Below are positions 17,406 to 42,941 of a stretch of DNA of 64,000 nucleotides, one piece after another. The notes under the pieces were generated by a model. The model saw only the letters and a program-made list of their open reading frames with translations. It did not search any database and was not told where the DNA came from. The stretch's first letter is position 1. Each line of letters starts with the position of its first letter. The stretch spans positions 9,294 through 73,293 of the forward strand of contig DASZHD010000046.1 of assembly GCA_035938175.1 (NCBI GenBank), written 5' to 3'. A program made the position numbers and the translations under genes. Source of the DNA: Vulcanimicrobiaceae bacterium. Lineage in GTDB: Bacteria > Vulcanimicrobiota > Vulcanimicrobiia > Vulcanimicrobiales > Vulcanimicrobiaceae.

Positions 17406-18785
<1,380 letters not shown>

Positions 18786-18790
18786 CGCGC

Positions 18791-20014: not shown

Positions 20015-20020
20015 GCTTTC

Positions 20021-20829: not shown

Positions 20830-20854
20830 CGGTCCGGTAACCGGCAAAAACGCA

Positions 20855-22113: not shown

Positions 22114-22145
22114 TGGACTACTCCAATTGCACTTTGGCCGCCGGT

Positions 22146-22185
22146 AAAAACGAAGAACCCCCGCGCGCGCGAGGGTTCTTAAAAA
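22146..22185 (-). terminator. intrinsic terminator downstream of the substrate-binding-protein gene
   Basis: On the minus strand, a GC-rich hairpin (aagaaccc...gggttctt, stems at 22153-60 and 22173-80) is followed by cgttttta. Confidence 0.55.
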
Positions 22186-22312
22186 ACCTCACTTGCGTGC
22201 TGCGATACGCGCTTCAACGTTCCGGATAGGACCGGACTCGTTGTTGAAGACGAACGCTGCTAACGCATAGTGACGGTGATTGTACCCTTTGTTGTAAAGG
22301 TTGTCAAACGCG

Positions 22313-23875: not shown

Positions 23876-24014
23876 AGGTGCCCCTTCCGTGCTGAGTGCG
23901 GCGGTATTCGGCTTCGCGCAGGGATCCCCGCGCTCGGTAAAATTCCGGTCAGGCGGCGGGTAAAGACCGGAGGAGGCCCGCTTGGGATGGCCAATATCCG
24001 CGGGTCGCCGACGT

Positions 24015-24090
24015 TCCGGATTAGCTCAGTTGGTAGAGCAGCTGACTGTTAATCAGCGGGTCGCTGGTTCGAGTCCAGCATCCGGAGCCA
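24015..24090 (+). tRNA. tRNA-Asn (anticodon GTT)
   Basis: 76 nt. Acceptor stem tccggat/atccgga, D-loop agctcagttggtagagc, anticodon loop ctGTTaa, T-arm ggttcgagtcc, encoded CCA. Confidence 0.95.
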
Positions 24091-24093
24091 TTG

Positions 24094-24130
24094 AAGCAGA
24101 AGCCCTCGCAATGCGGGGGCTTCTGCTTTT
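24094..24130 (+). terminator. intrinsic terminator after tRNA-Asn
   Basis: 12-bp perfect stem (aagcagaagccc at 24094-105 with gggcttctgctt at 24117-128) followed by a T-run. Confidence 0.7.
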
Positions 24131-24435
24131 ATCGTTGCGATGCTCGGACGTAGAAACCGTCAGGGTGAGCAGCGCTGCGTGGCAGCGCGTGTCGAACCAA
24201 GAGTCCATCATCCTCCACTCACGGCGGTGCCGTTTTTGGCTTGGCGCAGCGCCGCCGCCTTTCTGTTGCACGGGTAGCGGGGATTTGCGCACGGGAAGCT
24301 GCCAAATCGTTCGCGATTCTAAGTTATCCTACTGCATTTTGAGATTGACACTGTCCCTTACTTTGTACGCAATCGGCTAGCCGCACGCGTGGAAATATAA
24401 TTTCGTCTTACAGTGTAGTCCTCGCGCCTTTACAC

Positions 24436-24756
24436 TTACGGACCATACTGTGCTTTCGCCCTTTTCGGGTGAATAGGCGCGCACAGCACAATAGAACACG
24501 ATGAGTGCTGTTGCAGCAGATCACCCCAATCAAGACCCGAAAGGAAATATTTCCGACCGATACGATGTATCAAAGGCCTACTTGTATGCAACAAGCGTTC
24601 GAACGACTCCGAATCACCAGTTCTTGCATGCCCGATTAGCCGGTACGTTTCGTAAAGCGCTTGGAATGCGCGGCGGTCACTTGCCCGACTTCCGAGTAAG
24701 TGCAAAGTCGCGTCAATGGTGGATGATGCAAATTGCGAGTACGTAGTGTTGTTCAC
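24436..24756 (-). pseudogene. truncated sigma-70-family factor (region 2 fragment only)
   Basis: HARTGDSESFERLLHTSRPLIHRIGRKYFLSGLDWGDLLQQ resembles sigma region 2.1-2.2 (GD..AFE.L....RPL......KYF..G.D.EDLIQEG). The ORF ends about 20 codons later, without regions 2.4, 3 or 4. Confidence 0.4.
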
Positions 24757-25016
24757 ATGCTTTTCGCAACCGTCTTGAGCGACGACCAGTCCCGTTCTCG
24801 CAGCTTCAGCGGCAACTACTCGGCTCTACAGCCACATCGTCCGGTAACTTCCGGTTGCTCATCCTATGATGGGCATTCGTGGCTTGGATTTGGCGCAGTC
24901 ACGGTCGTTTTTCGGCGGCCGCTCGCTTTGCAGGTCAACGTCTCTGAGGTTTGCTCGCGACCCGGTAGGGTTGCTATTTTTCGAGAAGTATATCAAATGC
25001 GTTTCAGCATAGTACA

Positions 25017-25418
25017 ATGAACCGGTCCGAAAACATGCGGCGGATTCGAAGTCGCAATACCGTACCCGAGCTGATGCTCCGAAAGGCGCTTTACGCGCGA
25101 GGGTTGCGCTATCGGTGTCACGTTAGGTCACTTCCGGGCAGTCCAGATATCGTATTCGCTCGGCAGCGCACTGCGCTATTCGTGCATGGATGTTTTTGGC
25201 ACCGCCATCCGGGTTGCCGAGCTTGCACGACACCTCGGACGAATTCGGACTTCTGGAACGCAAAGTTTAGAGAGAATGTTGCCCGCGATCAACGAGACCT
25301 CGCTTTACTTGCTGCATCAGGTTGGAAAGTTATGATCGTGTGGGAGTGCGAGATCGCTTCGCGGCCATTTGCGTGCGCCGATAGGATCATCGAAGAACTC
25401 CTTCGTCGAGAACCGTAG
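25017..25418 (+). CDS. vsr: very-short-patch repair endonuclease
   Basis: 133 aa. NMRRIRSRNTVPELMLRKAL, PGSPDIVF, ALFVHGCFWHRH, NSDFWNAKF..N..RD and IVWECE are classic Vsr motifs. Confidence 0.9.
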   Translation: MNRSENMRRIRSRNTVPELMLRKALYARGLRYRCHVRSLPGSPDIVFARQRTALFVHGCFWHRHPGCRACTTPRTNSDFWNAKFRENVARDQRDLALLAASGWKVMIVWECEIASRPFACADRIIEELLRREP

Positions 25419-25811
25419 CTCATAAAGCGCACCTCAGGTGCCCTGCGTTATGAGCGGCACGCACAAGGAGCATGGTAGCGATTACCGAACTACGTCAGCT
25501 CGGCGCCACTTGTAAGGCGGCGCTGAATCGCGGCGTGTTCGTGGCTGAGGAATTCACATTGTATTTCTACCGTCACGCGGGGAGTGCTCTGCGATCTGTT
25601 TTACGGATCGTTGTTGAACCGCGTAACGCTGTCGAAGGGACCGCATCTGAATTTCAGTGTGTTCGGCGGCACGAATGGGATCGGTGTAATAACAGCTGGC
25701 GATGAAGGCGCCTTCGCTCAAGCATGAAGCAATCCAAGAGCGTAATACGCTGAACATAAATGCTTTGCGGCATGCCAGCCGTATGGCACACTTCCGCGCT
25801 AGCCTTGGGAT

Positions 25812-27257
25812 ATGAAGGTGCCATCTAACGCGACGGGCTTATCGCTGCTGGGCGATCGGGCTGAGGCAGATCGCATCATCGAACAGGCCGTCCGGTCGTG
25901 CCAGACCACACGGGGCAATGGTTCGTATGATCCGCGCGATGCGGAACGCGTCTATTTTCGCATGACTCGTCGGCCGGGCCATCCCCGGTCCATAGGACGA
26001 GCGTTAACTCAAATAGCTCGTCGTTTTTGCAAAGAAGCTGAAATCTCGTGTGCCGCGTGTCCTATTCGCCAGTTTTGCGAAACGGGCCGCTCGAATAGCA
26101 ATGAGCATCCCGCTGTCCCTTTCATCGACCTCTTTTGCGGTGCAGGGGGGTTTTCTTTAGGTTTTGAGGCGCTTGGATTTACGCCAGCGCTCTCAATTGA
26201 CCACGACCCATCGGCTGTGAGGACGTATAACTTTAATCGCCTGACGTCCGGCGGTCACGGCATACTTGCTGACATAGAAGACGTCGCTTACGACACAAGT
26301 CTTAGAGGCTTGGCGCCGCTAATCATAGGCGGTCCACCCTGTCAGCCATTCAGCATGGCAAATCGACAGCGCGCAGCATCCGATCAACGTGATCGCTTAA
26401 TCGATGTTTTCCTGCACGCAACTATGACGTCTCAAGCGAAAGTCTTCGTAATTGAGAATGTTGCGGGCGTAAGGCAACGCGAAGAAGTGATCAAGTCCTT
26501 CGGCGAGCGGGTCGGGTATGTCATCTTTCAGCGCGAAATTAATGCTAGTGATGTCGGTGTTCCGCAAAACCGCAACCGTACGTTTATTTTTGGCGTCAAA
26601 GCAAAAACGTGCGCTCAGCATAGCGAAGTAGAGGCGACATTTCTAAGGTTACTTTCCGAGCAGAGGCTGCTCCTAAAGACAGCACTGCGCGATGCCATAC
26701 GTGACCTCCCGGCGTTGAGAGCACCTTATCAGAGTAATGCGACAGTAGCTGATTCCGAGACGGTGGGCTTTGCCGTGGCGCCGTTTCATGGCGGCACGTT
26801 GTCGCAATACACCGAGATGTTGAATGGCGGCAAAAATCCTCAATTTCTTTTTAATCACCGGGCGAAGTATTTGAACGGCCGTGACCGAGAGATATACCGG
26901 CTGTTACGCCCTGGAGAGAAATCTGACGCGGATAGCATAGCACATATAATGCCGTACAAGCATCGCGCGCATCTATTTCGCGATAAATTTTATCGACTTA
27001 AGTGGACCGACGTGAGTAAGACGATCACTGCGCATATGTACTACGATTGCCACATGTATATTCATCCGACTCAAGCGCGCGGCCTAACACCTCGTGAGGC
27101 CGCGAGGATACAGGGCTTCCCTGATTCATACTTCTTTGTGGGTCGTCCAAATGAGTGGTATCGGCAGATTGGGAATGCTGTAAGCCCGATCGTTGCGGGG
27201 GAGGTTGCTCGCATTGCGCATGGGCTACTTGCGCTTTTCGGGGAAACTGATCGTTAA
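25812..27257 (+). CDS. DNA (cytosine-5)-methyltransferase with ~100-aa N-terminal extension carrying an EndoIII-type Cys loop
   Basis: Motif I FIDLFCGAGGFSLG, motif IV GGPPCQPFS, motif VI ENV, motif VIII QNRNRTFIFG, TPREAARIQGFPD, and motif X QIGNAVSP. The N-terminus carries CKEAEISCAACPIRQFC. Confidence 0.9.
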   Translation: MKVPSNATGLSLLGDRAEADRIIEQAVRSCQTTRGNGSYDPRDAERVYFRMTRRPGHPRSIGRALTQIARRFCKEAEISCAACPIRQFCETGRSNSNEHPAVPFIDLFCGAGGFSLGFEALGFTPALSIDHDPSAVRTYNFNRLTSGGHGILADIEDVAYDTSLRGLAPLIIGGPPCQPFSMANRQRAASDQRDRLIDVFLHATMTSQAKVFVIENVAGVRQREEVIKSFGERVGYVIFQREINASDVGVPQNRNRTFIFGVKAKTCAQHSEVEATFLRLLSEQRLLLKTALRDAIRDLPALRAPYQSNATVADSETVGFAVAPFHGGTLSQYTEMLNGGKNPQFLFNHRAKYLNGRDREIYRLLRPGEKSDADSIAHIMPYKHRAHLFRDKFYRLKWTDVSKTITAHMYYDCHMYIHPTQARGLTPREAARIQGFPDSYFFVGRPNEWYRQIGNAVSPIVAGEVARIAHGLLALFGETDR

Positions 27258-28255
27258 TGCGAGCATTCGACGCATTCTCAGGAATCGGAGGGTTTCACGA
27301 GGCACTCCGTAGCTCGCGCAATCTCAAAGGCGTTATGGTGCGCGCAGCGGTAGATTCTGATCCCGCATGCAAATTGGTATATCAACGTTCATTCGGTGAA
27401 CACGGCATTTTTTTTAACGATATATTCGACATCGGTATAGGAGACCGTGAGGGTCGCGACTTGGGCGCTGTTGATTTGATAATGGCCGGTTTTCCGTGCC
27501 AACCGTTCGCGAACATTGGGAGGAGGGGCGGGATGGATGACCCTCGGGCGCGGACGTTCCTTCATCTCGTGGACATTCTAAAGACGTATCAACCGAAGTA
27601 TGCCGTGCTAGAGAACGTCCAAAAACTCTCGAGTTTTGACAGTGGCGGAACGTATCGGGCAGTTTTGACCGCTTTAACTGCTGCCGGCTATCACGTGGAG
27701 CCTTTGGATCTTTGTGCGTCGGATTTCGGTGTTCCGCAACAGCGTAGGCGACTGTATTTTGCCTGCGTTCATAAGCGTTTTAGAAAACTACCCTTTAAGC
27801 ATCGGCTTCCTCGGCGCCATGGCCGGTTTCGCACTACGTGGCATCTATTGGAAAAAACTATGCCTGACCAGCATATTGTACCGCCTATGACTAGCCGCAC
27901 CGTTTTCAAGCGGAACACGCGATGGCAAGGTGACTTGCAGATAGATCGTGTGATCGCCCGGCCGATATGCGCCACGATGGGCAAGTGGCATCGTGCAAAT
28001 CAAGACAATTACTACTCCGAATCTTACGTCTTCGGTCCACAACCAACGGGTTGGGGAGGTGGCCGTGATTACAGGCACGGCGAGCCAGTGCGCCGTATAA
28101 CGCCGCTTGAAGGCTTGCGACTCCAAGGGTTTCAAGACGATTTCCTACGCGCATTCGAGGGAATATCAAATACAACGGCCTATCGACTTATCGGGAACGC
28201 CGTAGCGGTCCCCGTAGCGCAATCTGTGCTTGAATGGCTGCTCGCCAATGACTAG
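27257..28255 (+). CDS. DNA (cytosine-5)-methyltransferase (second, shorter)
   Basis: AFDAFSGIGGF, GFPCQPFA, ENV, QQRRRLYF, TPLEGLRLQGFQDDF and LIGNAVAVPV. TAATG start/stop overlap with the upstream methyltransferase. Confidence 0.9.
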   Translation: MRAFDAFSGIGGFHEALRSSRNLKGVMVRAAVDSDPACKLVYQRSFGEHGIFFNDIFDIGIGDREGRDLGAVDLIMAGFPCQPFANIGRRGGMDDPRARTFLHLVDILKTYQPKYAVLENVQKLSSFDSGGTYRAVLTALTAAGYHVEPLDLCASDFGVPQQRRRLYFACVHKRFRKLPFKHRLPRRHGRFRTTWHLLEKTMPDQHIVPPMTSRTVFKRNTRWQGDLQIDRVIARPICATMGKWHRANQDNYYSESYVFGPQPTGWGGGRDYRHGEPVRRITPLEGLRLQGFQDDFLRAFEGISNTTAYRLIGNAVAVPVAQSVLEWLLAND

Positions 28256-28276
28256 CTTGGAATTGCTCATAGTACG

Positions 28277-29743
28277 ATGGACGTTGTAGAGACAAGCGCC
28301 GGCTTCGACATCGCCCTTGCTCGGTTACGGGCGGCAAATTCCAATGTAGAAGATGAAACCTTCAAATGGGATGACGTTCGCGAAATTCTATGGCTTCAGC
28401 TCACAAACACGGATGTCGTGGCTTCCCGCAAGACCACGGATAGGAGTCACGCTACATCCATCGAGATAACAGACGGCGCAAATACTTCCCCGAACAAGGT
28501 TCGCGATTTCTTCCCAGCTCTCGCATTCAGCGAGAGATACCCTGAGCGACGAACCGCCGTACCGATTCGTTGGCGGCGCGAAAACGTAACCGGGCTGACG
28601 GAGCGTTTTGGCCAACCGAAGAGCGAGGAACCTGGTTGGGATTTAGGCACATGTCAGATACGTCGTACAAGGAACCGCAACGAGACCCAGAACCCCGGGT
28701 TGATGATCGCATACGAAAACGATATGCACGATCTTCGCGCTGCTCTACAAGAACACGACGCGCTTGTATTTGTACGGCGCGGCGGTGTACTCTCTTATGA
28801 GGTGTTCGGAATTGCACCTGAGCCACCATTCGACCCCATTCTAAACGGCAAACGGATCTTCGTTCGTGATCCGAGTCCAGGCGATCGCCGACAAGTATGG
28901 ACTTACAAAGATGCAAGGTTGCGATCGCTGGTCTCGTTCCTGGAGCAACCGGCCGGCCCGCAGGCGCAATCTCAAATTGATCGGGTTGTCGCAATCGCGA
29001 AAGAGCATGGGTCCACTGCAATTATCGCTCTCGCTGGCGTACCAGGTACCGGGAAGACGTACGTTTCCGAGCGAGCGGCAATCGCTATAGCGGGCGACCG
29101 GAGCCGGGTAGAAGTTGTGCAGTTTCATGCCGCATACGCGTATGAGGAATTTGTAGAAGGCATTACCTTTGAAGGCGAGCCGAAGAGCGGGTTGCTTCTA
29201 AGGCTAAATGAAAAGGCTGCACAAGACCTTAGCAATACGTACGTACTTGTCATTGAAGAGCTAACTCGCGCCGATCTCAGCGCGGTGTTAGGCGAGCTCC
29301 TGACGTACATTGAGTATCGCGACCGCTTCGTGACGCTTCCGTACAGCGGTAAAAAGTTTCGGTTGGCGCCCAACGTTATAGTGCTTGCGACCTATAACCC
29401 CACGGATCGTTCGGCCCTTGAGGTGGACGCAGCACTGCTGCGCCGGCTACGCATCATAGACTTTTTGCCGTCGTACGATCTTGCGTTTGAGATACTGAAG
29501 TTTAATGGCGTCGATGACGAAACCGCCACGAAAGCAGCTTCCGTCATGCTGGTGCAGAAGGCTGACCCTCGGTGGGCTTTTAGAATGCCCTTTGGGCATG
29601 GAATTTACGCGGACGTTCGTGGCGTTAACGACCTACAAGACCTTTGGGAGCAACGTATCAGCCGGTTCTTGCATGGGCCGTGGGAAGATCATCCGTATGC
29701 CGCCGATATCACTGCCGCTTATCCGTGGCGTAAAAATGCATGA
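28277..29743 (+). CDS. McrB-like AAA+ (GTPase-type) restriction subunit with uncharacterised ~230-aa N-terminal domain
   Basis: Walker A AGVPGTGKTY, Walker B/McrB-type VLVIEELTRAD, VIVLATYNPTDRS..VDAALLRR (AAA_5/McrB signature). Confidence 0.85.
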   Translation: MDVVETSAGFDIALARLRAANSNVEDETFKWDDVREILWLQLTNTDVVASRKTTDRSHATSIEITDGANTSPNKVRDFFPALAFSERYPERRTAVPIRWRRENVTGLTERFGQPKSEEPGWDLGTCQIRRTRNRNETQNPGLMIAYENDMHDLRAALQEHDALVFVRRGGVLSYEVFGIAPEPPFDPILNGKRIFVRDPSPGDRRQVWTYKDARLRSLVSFLEQPAGPQAQSQIDRVVAIAKEHGSTAIIALAGVPGTGKTYVSERAAIAIAGDRSRVEVVQFHAAYAYEEFVEGITFEGEPKSGLLLRLNEKAAQDLSNTYVLVIEELTRADLSAVLGELLTYIEYRDRFVTLPYSGKKFRLAPNVIVLATYNPTDRSALEVDAALLRRLRIIDFLPSYDLAFEILKFNGVDDETATKAASVMLVQKADPRWAFRMPFGHGIYADVRGVNDLQDLWEQRISRFLHGPWEDHPYAADITAAYPWRKNA

Positions 29744-30980
29744 CCAAGAATTGCCTAAAGCTGTGTTGCAGATGCGGGAGTGGGGACGGCGCGATATATC
29801 GACTGCCGACGCATTAACTTTTATTTCCGATGGCGCGTTCGGGCTATTATCTTCGCAAAATGTGTTGCAGGTTGTACGCGATCGGCGTGGCATCGCTTTG
29901 CGGGCATTCAGCTATGTGGGTCGATGTGACATCAACGACAAAAAGATCATAGTTGAACCGCGACTTTCCTGCAGCTACGACCCGCTTATCAAAGAGCTTG
30001 ACGCGTTAGATGCAAAGGCGGTCAATGGAGTACTCGAGCAGCTTTCGCTCGGTAGTACCGGCCGGTCTTTCATTGAAGCATTCATTTCAGCGGCTCAAAG
30101 CTATTTCAGCATTGGGCGGCTGAATCGCTACACTGCGGTGGATGAAGCTAGCCGGTTCGCGAGAGGAAAGATAATTACTCCGGCTACAATACGGCTTCGA
30201 GCCCGCGGGCGGAGCAACGTTGTCGTTACGCGGCGACGGACCCTGTCCCCCCCGACGCTGGCTCATAGTGCGCTGCGTCAGGCGCTTCTCTTGGCTGAGC
30301 AGCAGTTACTGAATCATGACAACCAAGATTCTCGCATCATAGAGCTGCGATCTCTAAGCCGGCTGTTGCCGATCGCGATGCCTACGTCGCTGAACCTTTT
30401 GCTGGACGCATGCGATGAAGCTCAAAAAGCATCCGCACCGTACATACGCGATCTTTTTAAGATCGTAAAGATAATTTTGCTGGGCGGTGCCGACAGTTCT
30501 CTCTCGGTACCGATCATCCAACTTGATCGCGCCATGTTCTTCGACATGGCGAAAGTAATAGAAAATGCGGTGCGCAGAATAGTAGCTCGTTCACTCTCAT
30601 CCCATCGCGTGTTGGATGGTAACGTGCATAAGCAGCCTTTCTTGCAGAATCCCATCAGTCTGGGGGAACCAGATATCGTTATCTATGATAGATCTAGGCT
30701 TATTGCCTTGATGGATGTAAAAGATAAGATCGTGGTGTCGGCGTCACGGGACGATGTATATCAGATATTTAGCCACTGTGTAGGTGCCGGTGCGAACCTT
30801 GGAGTCCTGATATTCATTGGCGAGGATTATGAAAGCCCCAAGCTAATTGGCGCGTGGGACTCACGGATATCCCTATTGCAAACCACCATTCGTCCCAACG
30901 AACCGGAGCGAGATCTGCGTCTAATGCTTTCGCAGCTAGCTATCGCGCGCGAAGAATCCTTTGCCACTAATAGGGCCTAG
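29736..30980 (+). CDS. McrC-like PD-(D/E)xK nuclease subunit
   Basis: McrC N-domain pattern (SYVGRCDINDKKIIVEPR), RGKI, and a C-terminal nuclease core GEPDIVIY...LMDVKDK...DDVYQIFSH. I use the ATG at 29736, which overlaps the McrB-like stop by 8 nt. The longer ORF-track start lies inside the upstream gene. Confidence 0.8.
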   Translation: MHDQELPKAVLQMREWGRRDISTADALTFISDGAFGLLSSQNVLQVVRDRRGIALRAFSYVGRCDINDKKIIVEPRLSCSYDPLIKELDALDAKAVNGVLEQLSLGSTGRSFIEAFISAAQSYFSIGRLNRYTAVDEASRFARGKIITPATIRLRARGRSNVVVTRRRTLSPPTLAHSALRQALLLAEQQLLNHDNQDSRIIELRSLSRLLPIAMPTSLNLLLDACDEAQKASAPYIRDLFKIVKIILLGGADSSLSVPIIQLDRAMFFDMAKVIENAVRRIVARSLSSHRVLDGNVHKQPFLQNPISLGEPDIVIYDRSRLIALMDVKDKIVVSASRDDVYQIFSHCVGAGANLGVLIFIGEDYESPKLIGAWDSRISLLQTTIRPNEPERDLRLMLSQLAIAREESFATNRA

Positions 30981-31510
30981 AGCGCTCATCGTTCATAAGG
31001 CCACTGACTTAAGGATTAGTCGCTCTGGGTGGCTCGGAACCAGGTCTATCGCGATAGCAACGGCCATCGATTTATTCATGAATGCGCGCAGAAACCGCTT
31101 TCCGCACGATGGGCGTTAACGCGCAGCCCGTACAGCTATTAGTATCAGATGATGCGAGCAAATTAACTAGCAACGCGTTTAAGTTCAAGTAGTTTGTGTG
31201 TGGCTGAGCTAATACGGAGTCCTCTGAGCGGCATCATTATGCCGTTTACCACAACGAGAAAACGTTCGCCGAAGGCACGACATGCGTGGGCGAGATCAGC
31301 CGATATGGCTGCCACTTCGTTCATCAGGATCCCCAAATCATCACGAACGCGTCTCCGTAGCGGAATCGGCGCGTACGTCGGCTCAAGCGGCAAAGTTCGC
31401 CATCGAATACCGGCGATGCGGAGTCTGTCATCCGCGCCGCCGGACGCGATCAGGTCCGCCAATGCTTTTGTGTGCGTCGAATGGGGATGCTGCAGGCTGA
31501 CGTCTCCCCA

Positions 31511-31686
31511 TGAGTGCCCCCGCTGATATGTGGAATCTGGGGCGTGAGCGTCGAAAGGAAAACCACATGCGCAAGTCCCAATTCACCGAAGCTCGGGTCG
31601 TCGGCCTTCTCGCAAAATCGACAGACCTTAAAATATTCCACCTTCCGTGCGATGGGATCTCCTACGCTGATGGCTACCGTCGGTAA
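31511..31686 (+). mobile_element. decayed IS3-family (IS407-like) left end with truncated orfA
   Basis: A 39-codon ORF at 31567..31686 encodes MRKSQFTEARVVGLLAKSTDLKIFHLPCDGISYADGYRR, resembling the HTH N-terminus of IS3/IS407 OrfA (MRKSRFTEEQI.G.L.........DLCRKHGIS.ATFY.W). The upstream tgagtgcccccgctg begins with the TG(A) typical of IS3 inverted repeats. No orfB follows. Confidence 0.45.
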
Positions 31687-32018
31687 ATTGTTCCCGAGGC
31701 TGGTGTGTGCCTTTGCCCCAGCCCGTGTTCTTTCCAGTATCGACTAGTGTGAGAGTCGTCCAAACGCCGGGACATCAGCGCACAGCGAACGCGTTGACAC
31801 TTCCAACTCATCGGATACGAACGGTCAGGTCTGTAGGAAGATCGGGCATGCGGAGGACTCGCGGCCTTGGCCAAGCATGCCAGTCAACAAAAGTGCAGTC
31901 GTCAATGGCGTTTTGGTAAGATTCGTTAGCGTTGTTACAACCTCCGCGATTCGTGAGTAACAGCCAACGTATAATGGTCTGATAACGATGTTGGTCTCTT
32001 TGGATCATAGCGAGACGG

Positions 32019-35000
32019 TCACTTCTTTTCGGCCTCTTGCACGTACGCACAGAGAAGATTAACGAGGGCCATCTGCTCGGGAGTACGGCAACGAATTTGC
32101 AGTAGACGCGGTGAGCAGAAGAGCACGCTTAGACATTGCGCGCGCGAGATGGCGACGTTGAAGCGGTTCTTCTCGAAGAGAAATTCCATATTGCGCGGCA
32201 GATCTTCACCGCTCGACGTCGCCATGGAGTACAGCACAATTGGGGCCTGAAGCCCCTGGAATTTGTCGACCGTGCCGACCGCGATATGTCCGAAGCCTGC
32301 CGCTCGAAGGCGCTGCTTGATTAAGACGCGCTGTGCGTTGTAGGGCGACACGATGAGAATGCTTGACTCGGTAATTGGGCGCCCGGATTCGGTACGCGTT
32401 TTGTAGGTGCCGCGCATGAGCAGCCTCACCTCTCTTACGATCGCTGCGGCTTCCTCGACAGAGGACCGGCGGTTGCCTTCGTGATCGATCGGTCTCCAAC
32501 GCAGCCCACTTCCCGCAAGACCGGGCGAAGTAACTGCATTAATCTCGTTCCCCTCGGCCGGCCTAAGACGGCCTTCATAGACTGCGTCAGAGATGAAGCC
32601 GCAAATCGACGGATGCATCCGCCAGGAGTGCAGCAAAAAGATGCCGCGGTCTTCAGGAATAGTCGCATGATCGCCCAAGAGATGCTGAAGAATGGACCGG
32701 CTGATGCCTGGCGGATGCTTTCCTTGTGAGACTTGTGCAAGCTGGAGAGGGTCACCGAGTAGCACGACACTTCTCGCGGCCCGTGCGCAGGCGATCGCGT
32801 CGGCGATAGGAAGTTGACCGGCCTCGTCGATTATCAACACATCGAAGGCGTTCGCCGCATTGCCCAATGCGAAAAGCCAGGGCGTACCCGAAACCAGTTC
32901 ATACTGCTCCTTGAGAGCATCGTCTGACTTCTTTTGATTAACGACTAACGCTCTTTCCCCGAGCGCCGACACGTATTGATCCTCGTCGTCGGTGTATTTG
33001 TGTGCGCCCCGGAAAACGTGTGAATCCTCGACCGCCGCTTTTTCCACGGCGGCTACGAGGTTGTGCGCTGCCTTGTGGCTGCGCGCCAGCACGCCAACAC
33101 GCTTACCGGCTTTCAAGAGCTCTACGATCGCGCGACCGCCCGTCGTACTCTTCCCAGTTCCGGGCGGTCCTTGTACGACGAGATAGCTGGAATCGAGTTC
33201 GAGAACTGCCTTCGCGAGGGATTGCCCATCGACGTGCGCCGGCTGAATGGTAGTGCCTGGCTGGTGGCCCTTCATCCGAGGAAATGCCATAAGCAGCATA
33301 TCCACGATTGCTGGGTGCTCGTTTTGGAGTCTACCGTCGATATAGAGCCGTGCGATATCGGCGAGAGCCTGGCGTTGGGGACCGCCGTCAAACGGTTTGG
33401 GAACCAGGGCGCGTAGCGCTGCATGATCCTCTTGCGGCCACCGGCGAAGTTGGAGTGTCCGAGTCTCATCATCGAGACTGACGAGCTCCCCGGCGCTCTT
33501 CATGGTATCTGGATCGTGAACGTGGGACCCGACGACGATGCCGTGCTGTTGTTCCGGAAAAGAAAACGTGTACGTCAACTTACGTTTGCCGGCCACCTTG
33601 ATGGGTTCAATTTCCGGGCACCAGTTGAGTTCGCCGATACATTCGTGATCAAATTCCGCGAGTTCGTCGGCGTTGCGACAGCGATGGAAGTACTCCCACC
33701 ACGATGGCTTCGCTTCGCTGCGATGGTAGTCGATTAGGTTTGCAAGATACCAGCGAAGTCGTTCGTCATCTGATAGCGCCCCCAGAGCAGCGAGATCGGC
33801 AGGCGGTTCTAGTCCAGCCAGAATCTGCTCGCGAAGCTCGCGCGTCGCGGCATTCTCTGCGCGTTTTTCCTCGCTCGGCGGCTTAGAGGCGTCGGGTACG
33901 AACCAGGGAAGATCGATTTTTTGGTCACGCTGCAATTGTTCGCGTCGTTCGAGAAGCCAATTGTGGAGGTGAAATGTCGAGCGGCAATCCTCATCGTTGT
34001 AGTGTCGGATCATCTCTAGGATCGAAGCGTCTCGGCGGTCTAGCCACTCTTCGAACAAGAGAATCGAGTCATCGCCGCGCTTAAGGTCTGCCGTACGATG
34101 GAAGTCGTAGAATGGCTCCAACTTCTTGATCGAGTAGCTCTCTTGTGAGATGCGAAGGCCTTGGCGCACTACCGTATAGAGATCCACAAAGACCTGAGCG
34201 CGCAGAAGGTCGTCGAATTCGTCAACGAGCGTGTTGTAACGAGTCGTAAGACGGCCTAAGGCCGTCTTTTCGTAGCTCGCATAGTGATAGACATGCATAT
34301 TGGGATATTTCTCGCGCCATTCCATGACGAAGGCAAGAAAGTCGGTTACTGCCCCTCTCTGCTCGACGAGCGAATGCGCCCAATAGGCGACGTACCGATC
34401 CTCTGCCGGCATGTAGACGCCGAACAAATACTCCAGGCCGGTCTCGGGTGCGTAGTAGGGGTCCCCCTCCATATCAAAGTAGAGATCGCCCTCGTCGCGC
34501 TCTGGAAGGAGCGAGAACCCGCGCTTTGGATCGCTCGGAAGGATCCTGAAATGGTACGCATCTTTTCCGGTTACGCCGGCCTCGATGGACTTGCGTTGCA
34601 GCACTTGTAGTTGGGCTTGCTGCGCCAAGTTATCAAAGGTGCCTGGATTGAAGCCGGTTGGTCGTGTTCCATTGGCATTGGCGAGCTGCGCAACCGTCGT
34701 GATTCCATCGGCATTGAGTTTGGCGATCTGATCGCGGCGCATCCAGGCGACAAGGCTGAGATGGTCGTCCTTGCGTCGTCGTTGGTCACAAACCGGGTCC
34801 CACTCACAGAGTAAGCAGTGCTCAACCTTGTCCGGATAGGCTTGGAGGACTTCGATATTCTGCAAGAACCATTTCCGTAGATGACGGTAATACGCCAAAT
34901 AGTCGTGTATGGCAAAGGACCGCTCCTCACCGCTTCCGAGCGCGACCATCATGTGTCTGGGAAGAAGCCCGTCTTGGAGGCGGCTGAGGTGCTCGCTGTA

Positions 35001-35465
35001 CGAGCAGAGTTGAATAAGGAAATACGCCTTCGCTGAGCGCGCGAGCTTCGTGTCGATGACTTCGTAGCTGAAACCCGAGGGGGTCCGTTCATCTTGAATT
35101 CGTCGAAGAAAATCAGCGCGCCCGAGAAATGCACCGTCAAAGAAAGTGGGCTGATAGATATAGGAAACGCCGCCTTCCATCGCTCGGCGTGTAGCTTGAT
35201 CGGCCGCGATCAGACCGTTGATGGATCGATCCGCAAGACGGGCAGGGAACTCGTGCACCGAGGCGTCGCTGCGCTTGAGCCGATCCAAGAATCGTTGCTC
35301 GTGTTCTTCGCCTTTGCGTCCTAGCAGGTCCGACGTCGGATCGGATGGTGGCGCCGTCAATCCACCCAATGCGACCTGACGCTGAAGCTCGCTGAGGTGG
35401 GGACACTCCAGAAAATTGTTGAGGTCCGTCGCTGAAAAGATCAGTCGACCATCGGCCCGCTGCAG
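32019..35465 (-). CDS. fused Cas4/RecB-like PD-(D/E)xK nuclease + RNase-H-like domain + SF1 (DNA2/Upf1-type) helicase
   Basis: Nuclease core GRADFL...YEVIDTKLA...YFLIQLCSY with a Cys cluster CLLCEWDPVC. An RNase-H-like segment follows (YFDMEGDPYY...HVYHYASYEKTAL). The helicase has Walker A QGPPGTGKST, VLIIDEAGQL, LLGDPLQL, SPYNAQR, VDKFQGLQAPIV and NVAISRA. The 5' end is extended past the ORF-track TTG (35369) to include the in-frame DLNNFLECPH. Confidence 0.85.
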   Translation of the reverse strand: MQRADGRLIFSATDLNNFLECPHLSELQRQVALGGLTAPPSDPTSDLLGRKGEEHEQRFLDRLKRSDASVHEFPARLADRSINGLIAADQATRRAMEGGVSYIYQPTFFDGAFLGRADFLRRIQDERTPSGFSYEVIDTKLARSAKAYFLIQLCSYSEHLSRLQDGLLPRHMMVALGSGEERSFAIHDYLAYYRHLRKWFLQNIEVLQAYPDKVEHCLLCEWDPVCDQRRRKDDHLSLVAWMRRDQIAKLNADGITTVAQLANANGTRPTGFNPGTFDNLAQQAQLQVLQRKSIEAGVTGKDAYHFRILPSDPKRGFSLLPERDEGDLYFDMEGDPYYAPETGLEYLFGVYMPAEDRYVAYWAHSLVEQRGAVTDFLAFVMEWREKYPNMHVYHYASYEKTALGRLTTRYNTLVDEFDDLLRAQVFVDLYTVVRQGLRISQESYSIKKLEPFYDFHRTADLKRGDDSILLFEEWLDRRDASILEMIRHYNDEDCRSTFHLHNWLLERREQLQRDQKIDLPWFVPDASKPPSEEKRAENAATRELREQILAGLEPPADLAALGALSDDERLRWYLANLIDYHRSEAKPSWWEYFHRCRNADELAEFDHECIGELNWCPEIEPIKVAGKRKLTYTFSFPEQQHGIVVGSHVHDPDTMKSAGELVSLDDETRTLQLRRWPQEDHAALRALVPKPFDGGPQRQALADIARLYIDGRLQNEHPAIVDMLLMAFPRMKGHQPGTTIQPAHVDGQSLAKAVLELDSSYLVVQGPPGTGKSTTGGRAIVELLKAGKRVGVLARSHKAAHNLVAAVEKAAVEDSHVFRGAHKYTDDEDQYVSALGERALVVNQKKSDDALKEQYELVSGTPWLFALGNAANAFDVLIIDEAGQLPIADAIACARAARSVVLLGDPLQLAQVSQGKHPPGISRSILQHLLGDHATIPEDRGIFLLHSWRMHPSICGFISDAVYEGRLRPAEGNEINAVTSPGLAGSGLRWRPIDHEGNRRSSVEEAAAIVREVRLLMRGTYKTRTESGRPITESSILIVSPYNAQRVLIKQRLRAAGFGHIAVGTVDKFQGLQAPIVLYSMATSSGEDLPRNMEFLFEKNRFNVAISRAQCLSVLFCSPRLLQIRCRTPEQMALVNLLCAYVQEAEKK

Positions 35466-35499
35466 AAGATGCTCCTTTCACCCACGCTATTTGTCGGAC

Positions 35500-35754
35500 T
35501 CATCGTATCCTACTCTTTGCTTCCGCCAACCGTGTGACACTCGGGCAGCGATAATCGTCCCTTTGGGCATACGAGACTATTCCGAGGATGCCGCTCGGTA
35601 TCCGTGTGATGGTCGGAGAGTATACGACGACTCGCGATAGAACGTCGATGTCACGGCCCAGGGTTGTAACGGCGTGTTGCTGGTTGCCCATCAGGCCTGC
35701 ATCCATTAGTAGGAGTGAGCCATAAACCTGTGGTGACACGGATTCGCCATTCAT
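35500..35754 (-). CDS. hypothetical small protein immediately upstream of the nuclease-helicase
   Basis: 84 codons from the internal ATG, on the same strand as the helicase and ending about 35 nt before its putative start. No motif recognised, so coding status is uncertain. Confidence 0.25.
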   Translation of the reverse strand: MNGESVSPQVYGSLLLMDAGLMGNQQHAVTTLGRDIDVLSRVVVYSPTITRIPSGILGIVSYAQRDDYRCPSVTRLAEAKSRIR

Positions 35755-36183
35755 CGGTGTCTCCCAGGTCCATGGGTCGCGTAGTGTACTGCGCATGACA
35801 CTTGTGACTCATTGTTACACAGTGGCGATGCCCGCTATTTCCAGTAGTGGACTGCACGCTCGCAGAACATACCGCCGCATCAGGCGATTTGCATGGCAAC
35901 TCCGCAGCAGCGGTTATGGACGCTGGCCGCCAAGGCCATTCCGCCCTCACCAAAGACGCCGCGCACTGCTGCTGGTTACGAAGGGGCTCGCGCTGAAGTG
36001 TAACGTCTACTGCGCGCGCCAACGAGTGCGGCCGGCTTCGAATATCTTACAAACGCCCTCGTCGAATCGCGACGTAGTCGGACGCACCGAAAAACGCGAT
36101 TTTGCATGGTTTCACCGCGCGGCACGTCCGGTGTAACCTCCCGCCGCCAACCCTCTGACACCACCGCATGCCAAAATATCCTC

Positions 36184-36672
36184 ATGGAAGAAGACAATGC
36201 CCGCAACCGGCGGGCGCTCAAAGCGCTTATCAATGCCGGTGGCTTCATGGCGCATCGCTTTGGCGAATCCGGCTTCGTGATGCCGTTCAGCGGTAGACTG
36301 CGCGACTGGCATATTCGCGCGAACCTTTGCGGTGGGTGGCTCGCAATGAGCACGTATGTTATGGAGTTACCCGACAAAGGCCCGACGCGCTCCGGACTCC
36401 TGGAGCGGATGCTCGAACTCAACGACGTCATCAGCGTCGGAAAATTTAGCAAGCACGAGCAAGCGCTGCATCTCGACGTGGAGTACCGCCAAGAACATGT
36501 GGACGCAAGCGCGTTTAGCGGTCTTGTCGGTCTCGTGCACTCGGTTTGCGAGCAGTACTATCCCGAACTCGTCCGCATCGCAACGGGCGATACTGCGCTG
36601 CAGCAACTGGAGGTGGCGTTCCAGCGGCCCGCGCTCGGCGCCGAATCAAAGGAGCGCCGGAAAGCGGACTAA
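36184..36672 (+). CDS. hypothetical protein (possibly YbjN / type-III-chaperone-like fold)
   Basis: About 162 aa from the internal ATG. The general pattern (LLERMLELND...GKFS...ALHLDVEY) is reminiscent of the YbjN family. It is convergent with the WYL regulator and overlaps it by 4 nt. Confidence 0.4.
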   Translation: MEEDNARNRRALKALINAGGFMAHRFGESGFVMPFSGRLRDWHIRANLCGGWLAMSTYVMELPDKGPTRSGLLERMLELNDVISVGKFSKHEQALHLDVEYRQEHVDASAFSGLVGLVHSVCEQYYPELVRIATGDTALQQLEVAFQRPALGAESKERRKAD

Positions 36673-37628
36673 CGGTACTCCGCGCAAATCTTCTCCGCGA
36701 TCGCTCGCGCGTGCTCAACCGCCTGAGGCGGCGCACACACCTTCGCGTCCGCGCCAAAGCCAAAAGCCCACCGCACCACCTCGCCGACGTCGCTAACGGT
36801 AAACGTCATCGTGGCGGAGCCGTCGTCGTGCAACTGCGTTTCCTGCGCCCGCTGCCATTCGCGCGACGTGGCCGAAGGCGCAATCGCCGGCGATAGCCAC
36901 ACCGAGACGCGCTGCTCGCTCTTGCCCTGAATGAAGCCGAGCACGTCGTCGTTCAAATACTTCTGCGGAATCGGCTGCGGCGAAAATGATCCGGCTCGTT
37001 TTATCGCACCCTGGATCGCGTCCAACGCGTAGTATTTCCAGTCGCGCGTGCCGCCCGCATCGCGAGCGAGCAAATAGTAGCGTCCCGAACGCATCACCGC
37101 GCATCCCGGCTCGACGCGCCGCTCTTTGCCCGAGTAACGGAATGTTACGCGCGCGTTGTTCGCCCATGCCGCCTGCAGCTCGTCGAAGGCCTCGGCCACG
37201 TGCGTTCCCTCGCGCAGCGCGGGCTGCAGAAAATGCAGGAACCGGCGTTCCTCGCGCGGCTCGTCGGCCTGGATCGACTGCAACTGCGCCTCCACCGGTG
37301 CTCCCAATGCGCGCCCGGCGTCGCGAATCAGCGTCTGCAGCGCGCGGCTGCTCTTGTCGATCCCGGTCGGGCGCTGGTCGAAATCCAGCAGGCGCACGCG
37401 GTCGTGTTCGCTCTTCTCGGCAATGCGAAAGCCGGCGCGCTCGCCGATTTTCCGCAATTCCTGAAGGTCGCGCAGAACCGTGCGTTCCGATGTCCCGTAT
37501 TCTTCGCACATGCGCTCGAGCCGGATAAATTTGTTGCGCACCAGTTCCAGCAGAATGCGGATTTTGCGCTCCGTCGCCGTGCTCGGCTCCCCCGATGGCC
37601 GGCCTTTGCCCGAGATCTTCTTTGCCAT
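36669..37628 (-). CDS. WYL-domain transcriptional regulator (HTH + WYL + WCX-like C-terminus)
   Basis: N-terminal wHTH (ERMCEEYGTSERTVLRDLQELRKIG) and a WYL domain (VTFRYSGKERRVEPGCAVMRSGRYYLLARDAGGTRDWKYYALDAI). I prefer the start MAKKISGKG at 37628. Confidence 0.8.
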   Translation of the reverse strand: MAKKISGKGRPSGEPSTATERKIRILLELVRNKFIRLERMCEEYGTSERTVLRDLQELRKIGERAGFRIAEKSEHDRVRLLDFDQRPTGIDKSSRALQTLIRDAGRALGAPVEAQLQSIQADEPREERRFLHFLQPALREGTHVAEAFDELQAAWANNARVTFRYSGKERRVEPGCAVMRSGRYYLLARDAGGTRDWKYYALDAIQGAIKRAGSFSPQPIPQKYLNDDVLGFIQGKSEQRVSVWLSPAIAPSATSREWQRAQETQLHDDGSATMTFTVSDVGEVVRWAFGFGADAKVCAPPQAVEHARAIAEKICAEYR

Positions 37629-37691
37629 GTGCGGGTATTGAACTCGCGCTCGCGCCAAGCCTACGGCACGCGCGCACGGTAGGCTCGCCCT

Positions 37692-37940
37692 ATGACACTC
37701 TTGATCGTTGGCCTAACGCTTTGGTTGGCCGGAAAACTGCTCGTCAAAGCGTTCGGCGCCGATCGGCCGCATTTCATCTGCCGGCACTGTGCGCGCATCA
37801 GCAGAGGCCACGATTACTGCGTGGATTGCCGGGACCTTCGGAGCACGGAATATACCGTGGGCGATTCGAACAAAGCCAAAACTGAGGGAGATCGAGGATG
37901 CCTTCAATCTTCGGGAATTTTGTATTTGCCGCGCCCCTGA
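37692..37940 (+). CDS. small membrane-anchored zinc-ribbon protein (hypothetical)
   Basis: 82 aa with an N-terminal TM (LLIVGLTLWLAGKLLV) then CRHC...CVDC. GC3-rich in the first ~55 codons. It is divergent from the WYL regulator across a 63-bp intergenic region. Confidence 0.35.
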   Translation: MTLLIVGLTLWLAGKLLVKAFGADRPHFICRHCARISRGHDYCVDCRDLRSTEYTVGDSNKAKTEGDRGCLQSSGILYLPRP

Positions 37941-37968
37941 ACGTTCGCGCTTTGACTTTGGCAGCGTC

Positions 37969-38790
37969 ATGCCCAAGAAACTGAAGCCTCGCCAGAAGCG
38001 CAAACCGCGCAGCGAGCGAATCTGCGGCTTACCGGTCTCTGACCGTGCGGATTATCGCGTCATTACGGCAATCGGCGATCTGCTCCGAGCCGTCGGGCGA
38101 TGCCGCGCGCAACTCTTCGCCGGCGAACCGCGAACCGAACAAGAGTGCGTGAGCGCGATGCTGGGGCACGTGTATGACGCAGCCGCGTCAGCCGTCACCG
38201 GTGTGTCGATGCTGCTCAGTCACGGCGGACGTATCGCACCGTACATGATGGGCCGGCTCTGTTTCGAGTACATGGTGCGTGCCGAATACTGCGCCGCGCA
38301 TCCCGACTACGCGCAGTGGGCGCTCCGCCTGCAGTTCCTGCGCAGCAATCTGCGCTACAACGATGCGATCCTCTCGAACAAAGACAAGCGTATCATGGGC
38401 GATCGGCTGCGTCGCGAAGAGCGCTGCCTGCCCAAACTCAGCCCGCACGCGCGAGAAGAAGCGGGTCTCGTGCCGTTTCACCAGATTACGTTCACCGACA
38501 TGATGCTCGACGTGCTGGATACGCACGACCCCGAAGCCTATCGCCGCCAGAGTATGCTGATGCACGCCGATCCGTATGCGATTGCCACGCTCGACGAGGT
38601 CGACGTTGCCGCCGTCAACCGCGAACTGGTCGAGGCATGCGTCGCGCTGGCGCGTATTGGTACGCTGATATACGAACGCGTGACGCTCGGGGCCATCGCC
38701 GAAGAGGAATTTCGTGCAGCGTGTGCGCGGATTGATGATCTTTCGACAGTTTACGGAAACCTAGGCGTATTGGACAAAGCTGCATCGTGA
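37969..38790 (+). CDS. hypothetical all-alpha protein
   Basis: 273 aa from the internal ATG (MPKKLKPRQKRKPR...). The sequence is helical and Arg/Ala-rich. No catalytic motif was recognised with confidence. The alternative start at 37789 overlaps the preceding small ORF. Confidence 0.5.
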   Translation: MPKKLKPRQKRKPRSERICGLPVSDRADYRVITAIGDLLRAVGRCRAQLFAGEPRTEQECVSAMLGHVYDAAASAVTGVSMLLSHGGRIAPYMMGRLCFEYMVRAEYCAAHPDYAQWALRLQFLRSNLRYNDAILSNKDKRIMGDRLRREERCLPKLSPHAREEAGLVPFHQITFTDMMLDVLDTHDPEAYRRQSMLMHADPYAIATLDEVDVAAVNRELVEACVALARIGTLIYERVTLGAIAEEEFRAACARIDDLSTVYGNLGVLDKAAS

Positions 38791-40311: not shown

Positions 40312-40971
40312 ATGCGTAACAGTCTTATCCCTGTGGCCCTCTCGGTGGCAGCATATGCCGCATTCGTGCGTCCGCGCATCCTGCGATGGGGCGCTACCGA
40401 TGAAGAAGTGAACGCGCCGTTCCCGGGCGCGGATCTCGTGCCGGCCGGCGTGCGCGGTGCAACCATGGCGACGACGATCGATGCTCCGCCGGCGAAAGTC
40501 TGGCCGTGGCTCGTCCAGATGGGTTACGGACGCGCAGGTTGGTACAGCTGGGATTACCTCGACAACCTTGGACGGCACAGCGCGCAAACGATGCACCCGG
40601 AATGGCAGAACGTCAAAACCGGCGAGTATCTTTCCGGACCGAACGTCAGCGAACCCGAGCGTACGGCGTGGGAAGTTGCGGCCCTGGAACCGCAGCGGTT
40701 CCTCGGCCTTCGATCGCGTATTCGCGGCAGTGAATCATTATGGGCGTTTTGGCTGAAGGAACTTCCCGGCAAGAAAACGCGTCTGATCGTAAGCGGCTAT
40801 TGGCGAACCGATCCCGCATGGCTGCGTCCGGTTCTCAGTTTTGCATTTCTCGAGTGGGCACATTGGATAATGCAGATGAAGCAGTTCGCCGAGATAAAGC
40901 AGCGCGTCGCGAAGTCGACCACAGTCCAGGAAATCTCAAGCGAGACGCTCGCGTTCACCCTCCCTCGATGA
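40312..40971 (+). CDS. SRPBCC-family (polyketide cyclase/START-like) protein
   Basis: IDAPPAKVWPWLVQMGYGRAGWYSWDYLDNLG is typical of an SRPBCC subfamily. Confidence 0.7.
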   Translation: MRNSLIPVALSVAAYAAFVRPRILRWGATDEEVNAPFPGADLVPAGVRGATMATTIDAPPAKVWPWLVQMGYGRAGWYSWDYLDNLGRHSAQTMHPEWQNVKTGEYLSGPNVSEPERTAWEVAALEPQRFLGLRSRIRGSESLWAFWLKELPGKKTRLIVSGYWRTDPAWLRPVLSFAFLEWAHWIMQMKQFAEIKQRVAKSTTVQEISSETLAFTLPR

Positions 40972-41719
40972 GCCTGCGAATCTGTTCTGCATACGCCCGG
41001 CTCGAATTCAGCTTAGTTCCGTTCCGCAAGACGATTACGTACTCGCCGTGAGTCCACGGTTCCAATCTGAAAATCCGGTCGGCATTGATCACGACCGATC
41101 GATGTACGCGGATAAATCCGTGAGGCGACAACCGTTCCTCAAAAGCTGTGAGCGCCTCACGCGTGCGCAGCGTCGCAGTTCCGCTGTGAATGACGGTATA
41201 ATTCCCGTCGGCCTGCAGCCAATCGATTTCGGATGCACCGATGAAACGCACGCCTTCTTGCGTTTTCACCGCAAGGCGTTCGGCCCCGGCGTTTCGGGCG
41301 GCCACCGCCCGAAGTAACCCTTCGATGTCGTACGGCGCGGAGGCGGGATCGGCAAGCCGTTCTCGTGCGCGATTGAGCGCACTGCCGAACCGCTCGGCCG
41401 AGTACGGTTTCAGCAAATAATCGATCGCGTTTACGTCAAACGCGCGAATCGCATACGCATCGTACGCCGTGACGAAAATGATGCCGCGAGGCCGTTCGTC
41501 GGCGCTCAGCGCTTCAAGCACGCCGAAGCCGTCGAGTTCCGGCATTTGAATGTCCAGAAACAGCAAAGCCGGATGCTCGCGCCGTATGTGCTCGACTGCG
41601 CCGCGCCCCTCCGACGCTTCGAAGACGACGTCCACGTCGTCGAACGCTTGCAGCAAATCCCGGACGCGCGCGCGTGCCGGCTCTTCATCGTCAACGATCC
41701 CGGCACGAAGCGTCCGCAT
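40955..41719 (-). CDS. LytR/AlgR-family response regulator (REC + LytTR)
   Basis: REC domain (IVDDEEPAR...LLFLDIQMPELDG...IFVTAYDAYA) and LytTR domain (IDWLQADGNYTVIH...HRSVVIN). Start at the ATG at 41719, one nt after the kinase stop. Confidence 0.9.
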   Translation of the reverse strand: MRTLRAGIVDDEEPARARVRDLLQAFDDVDVVFEASEGRGAVEHIRREHPALLFLDIQMPELDGFGVLEALSADERPRGIIFVTAYDAYAIRAFDVNAIDYLLKPYSAERFGSALNRARERLADPASAPYDIEGLLRAVAARNAGAERLAVKTQEGVRFIGASEIDWLQADGNYTVIHSGTATLRTREALTAFEERLSPHGFIRVHRSVVINADRIFRLEPWTHGEYVIVLRNGTKLNSSRAYAEQIRRLIEGG

Positions 41720-41720
41720 T

Positions 41721-42809: not shown

Positions 42810-42941
42810 TACACAAGTGTATCCGTTCCGGGCGTGCGGGAAAAGCGGCGCCGTCACGCGGTGCCGGCGTCTCGCAACCGCTTGCGTCCCTTCCGCCCCA
42901 GACTCGTGGCCCAAGCCGGTCGACCGCACTATTCTGGCGCC

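Follow-up and report, generated by a model that had tools for sequence, protein, structure and literature searches.

A variable region beside tRNA-Asn carries a LlaJI-like restriction-modification gene module in an uncultured soil bacterium of the Eremiobacterota

Background

LlaJI, a restriction-modification system of the Lactococcus lactis plasmid pNP40 (O'Driscoll et al. 2006, PMC1459862), comprises two 5-methylcytosine (5mC) methyltransferases that serve an asymmetric site and two restriction subunits, both of which are required. R1 joins a unique N-terminal half to a McrB-type GTPase half, and R2 has a PD...(D/E)xK centre (PMC1459862). The McrBC system of Escherichia coli (Type IV) stands alone and is methylation-dependent, and a census of McrBC systems found that some of their branches are regularly linked to methyltransferases (bioRxiv 10.1101/2023.07.31.551357). 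Islands linked to tRNA genes or dedicated to defence have likewise been described, as have restriction-modification units that integrated at tRNA genes (Furuta et al. 2010, PMC2853133). In this report, we compare these systems with a locus of a Vulcanimicrobiaceae bacterium (assembly GCA_035938175.1). The whole stretch of DNA analyzed, hereafter the window, is 64,000 nucleotides long (contig DASZHD010000046.1, positions 9,294 to 73,293 of the forward strand); in it, a tRNA-Asn gene is followed by low-GC DNA that encodes a Vsr endonuclease, a LlaJI-like set of four proteins and a nuclease-helicase.

Our main conclusion, which we regard as probable, is that a variable, horizontally assembled accessory region extends here from the tRNA-Asn terminator to a LytTR gene, that it occupies an integration site of the family, and that its core contains at least two independently acquired modules. 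The first would be a recently gained, intact restriction-modification module (Vsr plus a LlaJI-type four-gene operon), and the second an additional, foreign copy of a nuclease-helicase widespread in the family. The only trace of site-specific integration would be a degenerate att-type unit directly after the terminator; as this unit is degenerate and no recombinase is present, the current content appears to be fixed in place. All parts are of known kinds, namely a tRNA-linked island, a LlaJI-type or methyltransferase-linked McrBC system, Vsr and a superfamily 1 (SF1) nuclease-helicase, and the whole is an ordinary horizontally acquired defence island, not a new kind of element. On this reading, Eremiobacterota, an uncultured and poorly studied soil phylum, would acquire defence genes by the usual route, through foreign DNA that settles at a tRNA hot spot, and the locus would be a well-delimited example of recent horizontal transfer in the lineage. 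It would also offer a candidate methylation motif to seek in metagenomic methylomes, as an aid to binning and host-linking, and a clean set of sequences for a little-studied, methyltransferase-associated branch of McrBC. Its practical value is modest.

The genome under study (G000) is metagenome-assembled, originates from soil and consists of 62 contigs (3.73 Mb); our analysis places it in the family Candidatus Baltobacteraceae, Eremiobacterota. The window lies on a contig of 76 kb (C46). The closest relative, G002, belongs to the same genus and has about 70-80% nucleotide identity; G001 is of the same genus as well, and G007 is of the same family and another genus. Closer relatives were sought with the flanking SBP protein, which found nothing above 37% identity among species genomes and metagenome contigs, and a best match of 71% protein identity among 5.8 billion proteins.

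Results and discussion

A low-GC block within a larger variable region

The tRNA-Asn gene, which bounds the region on the left, is the sole tRNA of the window according to ARAGORN and Rfam, and Rfam reports no further non-coding RNA between 23 and 42 kb. Its terminator is host sequence and lies outside the island: the hairpin is kept in two relatives, G002 and G003, and homology with both stops at about 24121. Within some 200 nt of this terminator the low-GC block begins. GC content per 1 kb drops from 0.59-0.64 upstream to 0.51-0.57 across 24.0-36.0 kb; farther on it is 0.61-0.65 at 36-38 kb, 0.53 at 38.5-40 kb and then 0.58-0.63.

A preliminary description of the stretch had reported a low-GC accessory island at 24091-36100. 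The GC content of this interval is 0.546, so that only one 12-kb window of the genome is lower and 99.9% of them are higher (whole assembly 0.612; standard deviation of 12-kb windows 0.014). The tetranucleotide L1 distance to the genome is 0.33-0.38 in the block versus 0.14-0.18 in the flanks, or about twice as large. Segmentation by likelihood change points, for which block shuffles of host-like sequence served as the null (maximum gain 6.9), put limits at about 24295 and about 35870 with gains of 10-33; the resulting block (about 24.3-35.9 kb) has a GC content of 54.3% versus 61.2% for the genome. The profile is thus not flat, and both the composition drop directly after tRNA-Asn and its terminator and the coordinates of the interval were accurately described; the flanking GC of 62-65% had been set slightly high. 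The segmentation also flags a low-GC stretch (0.512) at window positions 1-1440. The lowest-GC 12-kb window of the genome (0.544) falls in another contig (C60:136000-157200), where a second vsr gene (49% identical) adjoins a C5-methyltransferase gene and a tyrosine integrase gene lies about 9 kb off; this is probably another restriction-modification island.

The non-syntenic region is larger than the block. Collinearity with G002 covers the 9.3 kb that lead up to the tRNA terminator (window 14833-24121); 168 bp beyond the tRNA, in unrelated sequence, the G002 contig stops. Collinearity is back at window position 40992, within the 3' end of the LytTR gene (G002:C363 5978-7641 corresponds to 40992-42659, at 70%), and in G002 this gene is preceded by other genes, encoding a GH26 enzyme, a hypothetical protein and an AcrB transporter. 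These synteny limits define a variable region of about 24.13-40.95 kb (16.8 kb), which therefore exceeds the low-GC block; G001 has no synteny on either side. The features of the region are listed in Table 1.

Table 1. Features of the variable region and its two anchors (window coordinates)
Feature	Position	Strand	Evidence and remarks
tRNA-Asn(GTT)	24015..24090	+	ARAGORN; Rfam tRNA 71.8 bits; left anchor of the variable region
Intrinsic terminator of the tRNA	24094..24133	+	GC-rich hairpin GCAGAAGCCC...GGGCTTCTGC, then TTTTAT; inverted repeat I2
Degenerate att-type repeat unit, putative relic	24138..24213	+	Spacer and copy of the last ~20 nt of tRNA-Asn, GAGTCCATCATCC at 24201-24213
Possible sigma-70 family fragment, N-terminal region 2 only	24436..24825	-	NCBIfam E 7e-4 to 5e-3, residues 54-106; weak
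Vsr very-short-patch-repair endonuclease, intact	25017..25418	+	Pfam Vsr 8e-28; TIGR00632 139.5 bits (cut-off 97.85); PADLOC Vsr
M1, C5-cytosine DNA methyltransferase, 481 aa	25812..27257	+	PF00145 5e-54
M2, second C5-cytosine DNA methyltransferase, 332 aa	27257..28255	+	PF00145 5e-54
R1, McrB-like AAA+ GTPase	28277..29743	+	AAA_5 4e-17
R2, McrC-like PD-(D/E)xK nuclease subunit, 414 aa	29736..30980	+	PF10117 McrBC 5e-11
Gene-poor stretch, ~1 kb	30981..32018		Candidate relic of an IS3-type OrfA N-terminus, 24 codons, ~31540-31611 (+)
Nuclease-helicase, intact	32019..35465	-	TIGR03491 2e-67; RNase_H_2; AAA_11/12/30
Accessory genes	36106..38790		188-aa open reading frame (+); WYL/WCX regulator 36669-37658 (-), Pfam; divergent open reading frame (+), weak DUF5677
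Lipoprotein-like secreted repeat protein, 356 aa	38906..39976	-	Signal peptide and lipobox from translation; GC 0.53
LytTR response regulator and histidine kinase	40955..43013	-	Pfam; right anchor

A restriction-modification module with the architecture of LlaJI

Family matches confirmed the genes that the preliminary description had named as vsr, two methyltransferases, McrBC-like genes and a nuclease-helicase. M1, M2, R1 and R2 are co-oriented and overlap or nearly abut one another: the start of M2 overlaps the stop of M1 (ATGA), and the start of R2, which we re-set to the ATG at 29736, overlaps the stop of R1 by 8 nt. Such overlaps fit with a single operon. Both methyltransferases possess all of the motifs FxGxG, PCQ, ENV, QxRxR and GNAV. 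In R1, the AAA+ part occupies approximately residues 245-470 and contains a Walker A motif (GVPGTGKT), a Walker B motif (IEELTRA) and the McrB signature NxxD in the form NPTD. R1 matches E. coli McrB chains at 2e-23, and in an AlphaFold2 (AF2) model its AAA+ part resembles McrB structures with a TM score of 0.72. The N-terminal part of R1, of about 240 aa, has no Pfam match and no detectable similarity to anything; presumably, this is the domain that reads DNA. R2 carries the motif P312-D313...D327-V-K329, which is invariant in homologues.

M1 has an N-terminal extension of about 100 aa (residues 1-103, window 25812-26120) with four cysteines arranged as C73-x6-C80-x2-C83-x5-C89, the spacing of the [4Fe-4S] cluster loop of EndoIII and MutY. 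Homologues at 60% and at 39% identity retain all four without change, and residues 57-99 give a weak NCBIfam mutY match where Pfam sees none. This loop and the N-terminal domain of R1 may merit a study of their own.

The order M1-M2-R1-R2 recurs on two unrelated metagenome contigs; the cassette is a conserved unit. On the first contig (L067, GC 0.53), the four proteins are 60, 71, 64 and 53% identical to M1, M2, R1 and R2, respectively; on the second (L068), R1 is 36% identical and a vsr gene is adjacent.

The likeness to LlaJI lies in the architecture, with four co-oriented genes in which two 5mC methyltransferases are followed by R1 and R2, an R1 whose C-terminal half is a McrB-type GTPase and whose N-terminal half is unique, and an R2 that has a PD...(D/E)xK centre. 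The module departs from LlaJI in several respects: R2 matches the Pfam family McrBC (PF10117) and not RE_LlaJI, the N-terminal domain of R1 resembles nothing detectable, M1 has the N-terminal Cys4 loop, vsr lies upstream, and the host replicon is an Eremiobacterota chromosome rather than a lactococcal plasmid. Judged by sequence, membership of the LlaJI group thus appears to be only partial. With E. coli McrBC, the module shares an AAA+ GTPase with Walker A, Walker B and NxxD (NPTD) motifs and a partner of the PD-DxK McrC family. However, unlike the stand-alone, methylation-dependent E. coli system, the pair encoded here shares an overlapping operon with two methyltransferases, and its DNA-binding domain is not the same.

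Because the gene architecture matches that of LlaJI, we infer an enzymology of the same mode, that is, a site-specific restriction system blocked by methylation, in which R1 and R2 most likely cut unmethylated and not methylated DNA. M1 and M2 would each methylate one strand of an asymmetric site. R1, a McrB-like GTPase whose own N-terminal domain would read the DNA, would bind unmethylated sites, and would power and recruit R2, a McrC-like PD-DxK nuclease, to cut foreign DNA. Vsr, for its part, would repair the T:G mismatches that result from deamination of 5-methylcytosine. A bolder proposal can be made, to which we give little credence: the cassette and its two metagenomic relatives might form an uncharacterised clade of methyltransferase-linked McrBC restriction systems, with a [4Fe-4S] cluster loop in M1 and an undescribed DNA-reading fold in R1, and, as a separate matter, the units of about 74-129 nt derived from the tRNA-Asn 3' end in G000 and G007 (see below) might constitute an integrative element family specific to Eremiobacterota. 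If the proposal of a distinct clade were true, the mechanism or regulation of restriction-modification would be unlike that of LlaJI.

The module was probably acquired horizontally, and recently. GC content at third codon positions (GC3) is 0.53-0.56 in Vsr, M1, M2, R1 and R2 versus 0.67-0.79 in the flanking host genes. The restriction-modification block is closest to that of L067, which comes from an organism of about 53% GC. Among 150 further genomes of the family, drawn from 78 genera, none yielded a homologue of R2 at E<=1e-5, and this absence points to a recent gain.

A second copy of a family nuclease-helicase

The other intact gene of the block encodes a protein of about 1,100 aa with a TM0106-type RecB-like nuclease, an RNase-H-like domain and an SF1 helicase of the Upf1/Dna2-like type. 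The open reading frame was called at 32019-35369, but no ATG, GTG or TTG occurs upstream of the conserved N-terminus. A CTG at 35465 lies 6 nt after a perfect AAGGAG (35463-35477, minus strand); it is probably the start codon, and recovers an N-terminus that is present in the paralogue.

Most genomes of the family encode this protein, usually in a single copy, and G000 has two. The copy on contig C51 has a host-like GC content and is 69% identical to its G001 orthologue and 69-74% identical to G002 fragments; its identity to same-genus copies marks it as the vertical copy. The island copy is 49% identical to the C51 copy, and its best matches are found in other genera of the same family (G011, 60%; G008, 54%). 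Its GC3 is intermediate, at 0.64. The island copy is a second, laterally acquired one, with a history unlike that of the restriction-modification genes.

The nuclease-helicase gene and the WYL regulator gene share a strand and are separated by about 1 kb, here (32019-37658) as in G007 (C1:1111480-1116597). A functional link between them was considered and dropped: they are not adjacent in G008, G011 or G001, nor is there a WYL gene beside the C51 copy. In G001, a lower-GC accessory stretch (L033, C1:2076919-2096093) includes an extra nuclease-helicase copy interrupted by stops, a prim-pol gene, a homologue of the 188-aa open reading frame (60% at the amino acid level) and a WYL homologue (76% at the nucleotide level); it loosely parallels the window at 32-38 kb.

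tRNA-Asn as an integration site of the family

Directly after the terminator, positions 24138-24213 align to a repeat unit of G007 with a local score of 56-60, compared with 14 +/- 2.3 (maximum 24) for shuffled sequences. In G007, a 20.7-kb segment follows tRNA-Asn (C1:722672-743774; L085, L086) and is closed by a direct repeat of 43 nt of the tRNA, from the anticodon loop to the acceptor end. At the two ends of this segment there are five copies of a unit of about 74-129 nt, in which a terminator hairpin and a spacer precede the final 21 nt of the tRNA. The cargo includes TraI-like helicase fragments, an AbiEi-like gene and fragments of Type III res and mod genes. Three further genomes of the family have partial repeats of the tRNA-Asn 3' end: G017 and G005 at a distance of 1-2 kb from the tRNA, and G011 in three places. 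Together, the bracketed island of G007 and these partial repeats indicate that integration at tRNA-Asn has happened repeatedly in the family. As for composition beside tRNA-Asn, G001, G003, G007 and G013 are without a dip to 0.51-0.55, that of G007 being mild (0.56-0.59).

The island of G007 and the locus of G000 thus have in common the target tRNA, a homologous unit after the terminator and a cargo of the defence or mobility type. They differ in that G007 has the 43-nt distal repeat and five units, where G000 has one degenerate unit and none at the distal side, and in that no cargo genes are shared. Compared with the islands treated by Furuta et al. (2010, PMC2853133), the location on the 3' side of a tRNA gene, the foreign composition, the defence cargo and the att-type relic are alike, whereas there is here no integrase, no distal direct repeat and a mosaic content. 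Taken as sequence resemblance, the alignment supports the view that G000 keeps a relic of integration at the proximal edge and that the location of the region is not accidental.

How the region was assembled

The order of events is likewise inferred, and three explanations other than the one we favour have to be weighed. The preliminary description saw a single old integrative island (24.1-36.1 kb), inserted by an integrase at the 3' end of tRNA-Asn, which had lost its integrase and distal att site and was decaying. Several features agree with such a history: the position directly after the tRNA with the relic described above, the bracketed tRNA-Asn island of G007 with its decayed mobility and defence genes, and, in G000, 1 kb without genes and two sequences that may be gene fragments. 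That no integrase or recombinase is left also proved correct, as six-frame searches of the whole contig C46 for Phage_integrase (PF00589), Resolvase (PF00239) and rve (PF00665) gave zero matches. However, the unameliorated GC3, the absence of R2 from all 150 family genomes searched, the nearest cassette in an organism of about 53% GC and the intact genes argue against an old island. Decay, likewise, is seen only in two very short and weakly supported fragments, whereas the helicase gene is intact, as are all five restriction-modification genes with their catalytic motifs. Nor does the content look like that of a single island, since GC3 is heterogeneous (0.53-0.56 versus 0.64) and the nearest relatives differ, being a ~53% GC organism for the restriction-modification genes and genomes of the same family for the helicase. 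We consider this explanation unlikely. From the preliminary description, an accessory, defence-type segment of foreign composition beside a tRNA gene is supported; that it is old, decayed and a single island is not supported.

Alternatively, the cassette may have moved as a selfish unit, without site-specific recombination, into an already variable intergenic region, for example by illegitimate or flank-homology events after transformation, its proximity to the tRNA being incidental. Integrase-free insertion of restriction-modification units, through target duplication or through substitution, is on record (PMC2853133); the locus has neither an att pair nor a recombinase, and the cassette is found in different contexts elsewhere. 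Yet no direct or inverted repeats above chance, whatever their length, flank the cassette (a general repeat search over 23.5-42.5 kb gave only chance-level pairs), and the 3' side of tRNA-Asn bears integration traces in four family genomes, with a homologous relic here. We hold this second alternative to be very unlikely.

That the region is not foreign at all, but either native DNA of unusual composition or a chimeric join from metagenome assembly or binning, is barely credible: the genome is indeed a metagenome assembly of 62 contigs and Logan contigs do break at the tRNA, but the very high coverage of that conserved tRNA sequence in the metagenome (about 3,400x) accounts for these breaks, R2 is absent from relatives, and the synteny break occurs at this very place. 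A 141.5-kb JGI contig spans both junctions and is 100% identical across 18277-39743, as is a 25.9-kb Logan contig across 24034-39743. Depth is equal in island and left flank (9.19 versus 9.49 in run X1), and a run from a second study yielded pieces of the island without differences. The island is not an assembly artefact. No presence/absence polymorphism was apparent, as no read join skipping the island was found in two soil runs.

A number of points weigh against the region being a horizontally assembled one at a family integration site, with a LlaJI-like module in its core. Integration at the tRNA is proposed by analogy with G007, and a distal att copy is missing: a search for repeats of the tRNA 3' part between 24.15 and 47 kb by blastn-short had a best score of 20.3 bits, below the shuffled mean of 21.8, and exact patterns, patterns with three mismatches and k-mers of at least 11 nt gave nothing above chance. 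The preliminary description had likewise seen no obvious direct repeat of the tRNA 3' end. Moreover, the relic may be older than the cargo now present and have nothing to do with it. The comparison with G002 does not provide an empty site, its nucleotide identity being only about 70% and its contig breaking after the tRNA. As for the helicase, its GC3 of 0.64 is compatible with a different donor as well as with a longer stay in the genome. As to function, site-specific cleavage blocked by methylation is deduced from the architecture of the operon, and R2 does not match Pfam RE_LlaJI even at E<=10, its match being to PF10117 only. Finally, the fold of the R1 N-terminal domain could not be used: in the AF2 model this domain is beta-rich with a pLDDT of 40-75, a confidence too low to rely on, and the fold search was dominated by the AAA+ domain, so that the AF2 fold was set aside.

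Possible gene fragments and the far side of the region

Two remnants mentioned in the preliminary description are less certain than the genes discussed above. The truncated sigma factor corresponds to a weak NCBIfam match (E of about 1e-3 over some 50 residues) with no Pfam match; the fragment has a GC content of 0.52. The IS3 remnant lies in the gene-poor stretch after R2, in which no Pfam match in any frame, no Rfam match and no credible gene were found, and which has no blastn match among 72,556 plasmids. Six-frame searches did not detect HTH_Tnp_1 or rve at the candidate relic. What suggests an IS3 origin is a tblastx resemblance, 24 codons long, to the N-terminal end of the IS3-type OrfA that the genome itself encodes (46% over 24 aa; E of about 2-4e-4 in a tiny search space).

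On the far side, the boundary is ambiguous, as had been noted. The genes at 36106-38790 have a host-like GC3 of 0.68-0.79, including that of the WYL regulator; they are outside the low-GC block and inside the region that is non-syntenic with G002, and homologues occur at other loci in G001 (76% at the nucleotide level) and G007. Beyond them, the separate low-GC gene at 38906-39976 encodes a lipoprotein-like protein with no family match. A paralogue with 30% identity is encoded on contig C59, in another low-GC region of the genome.

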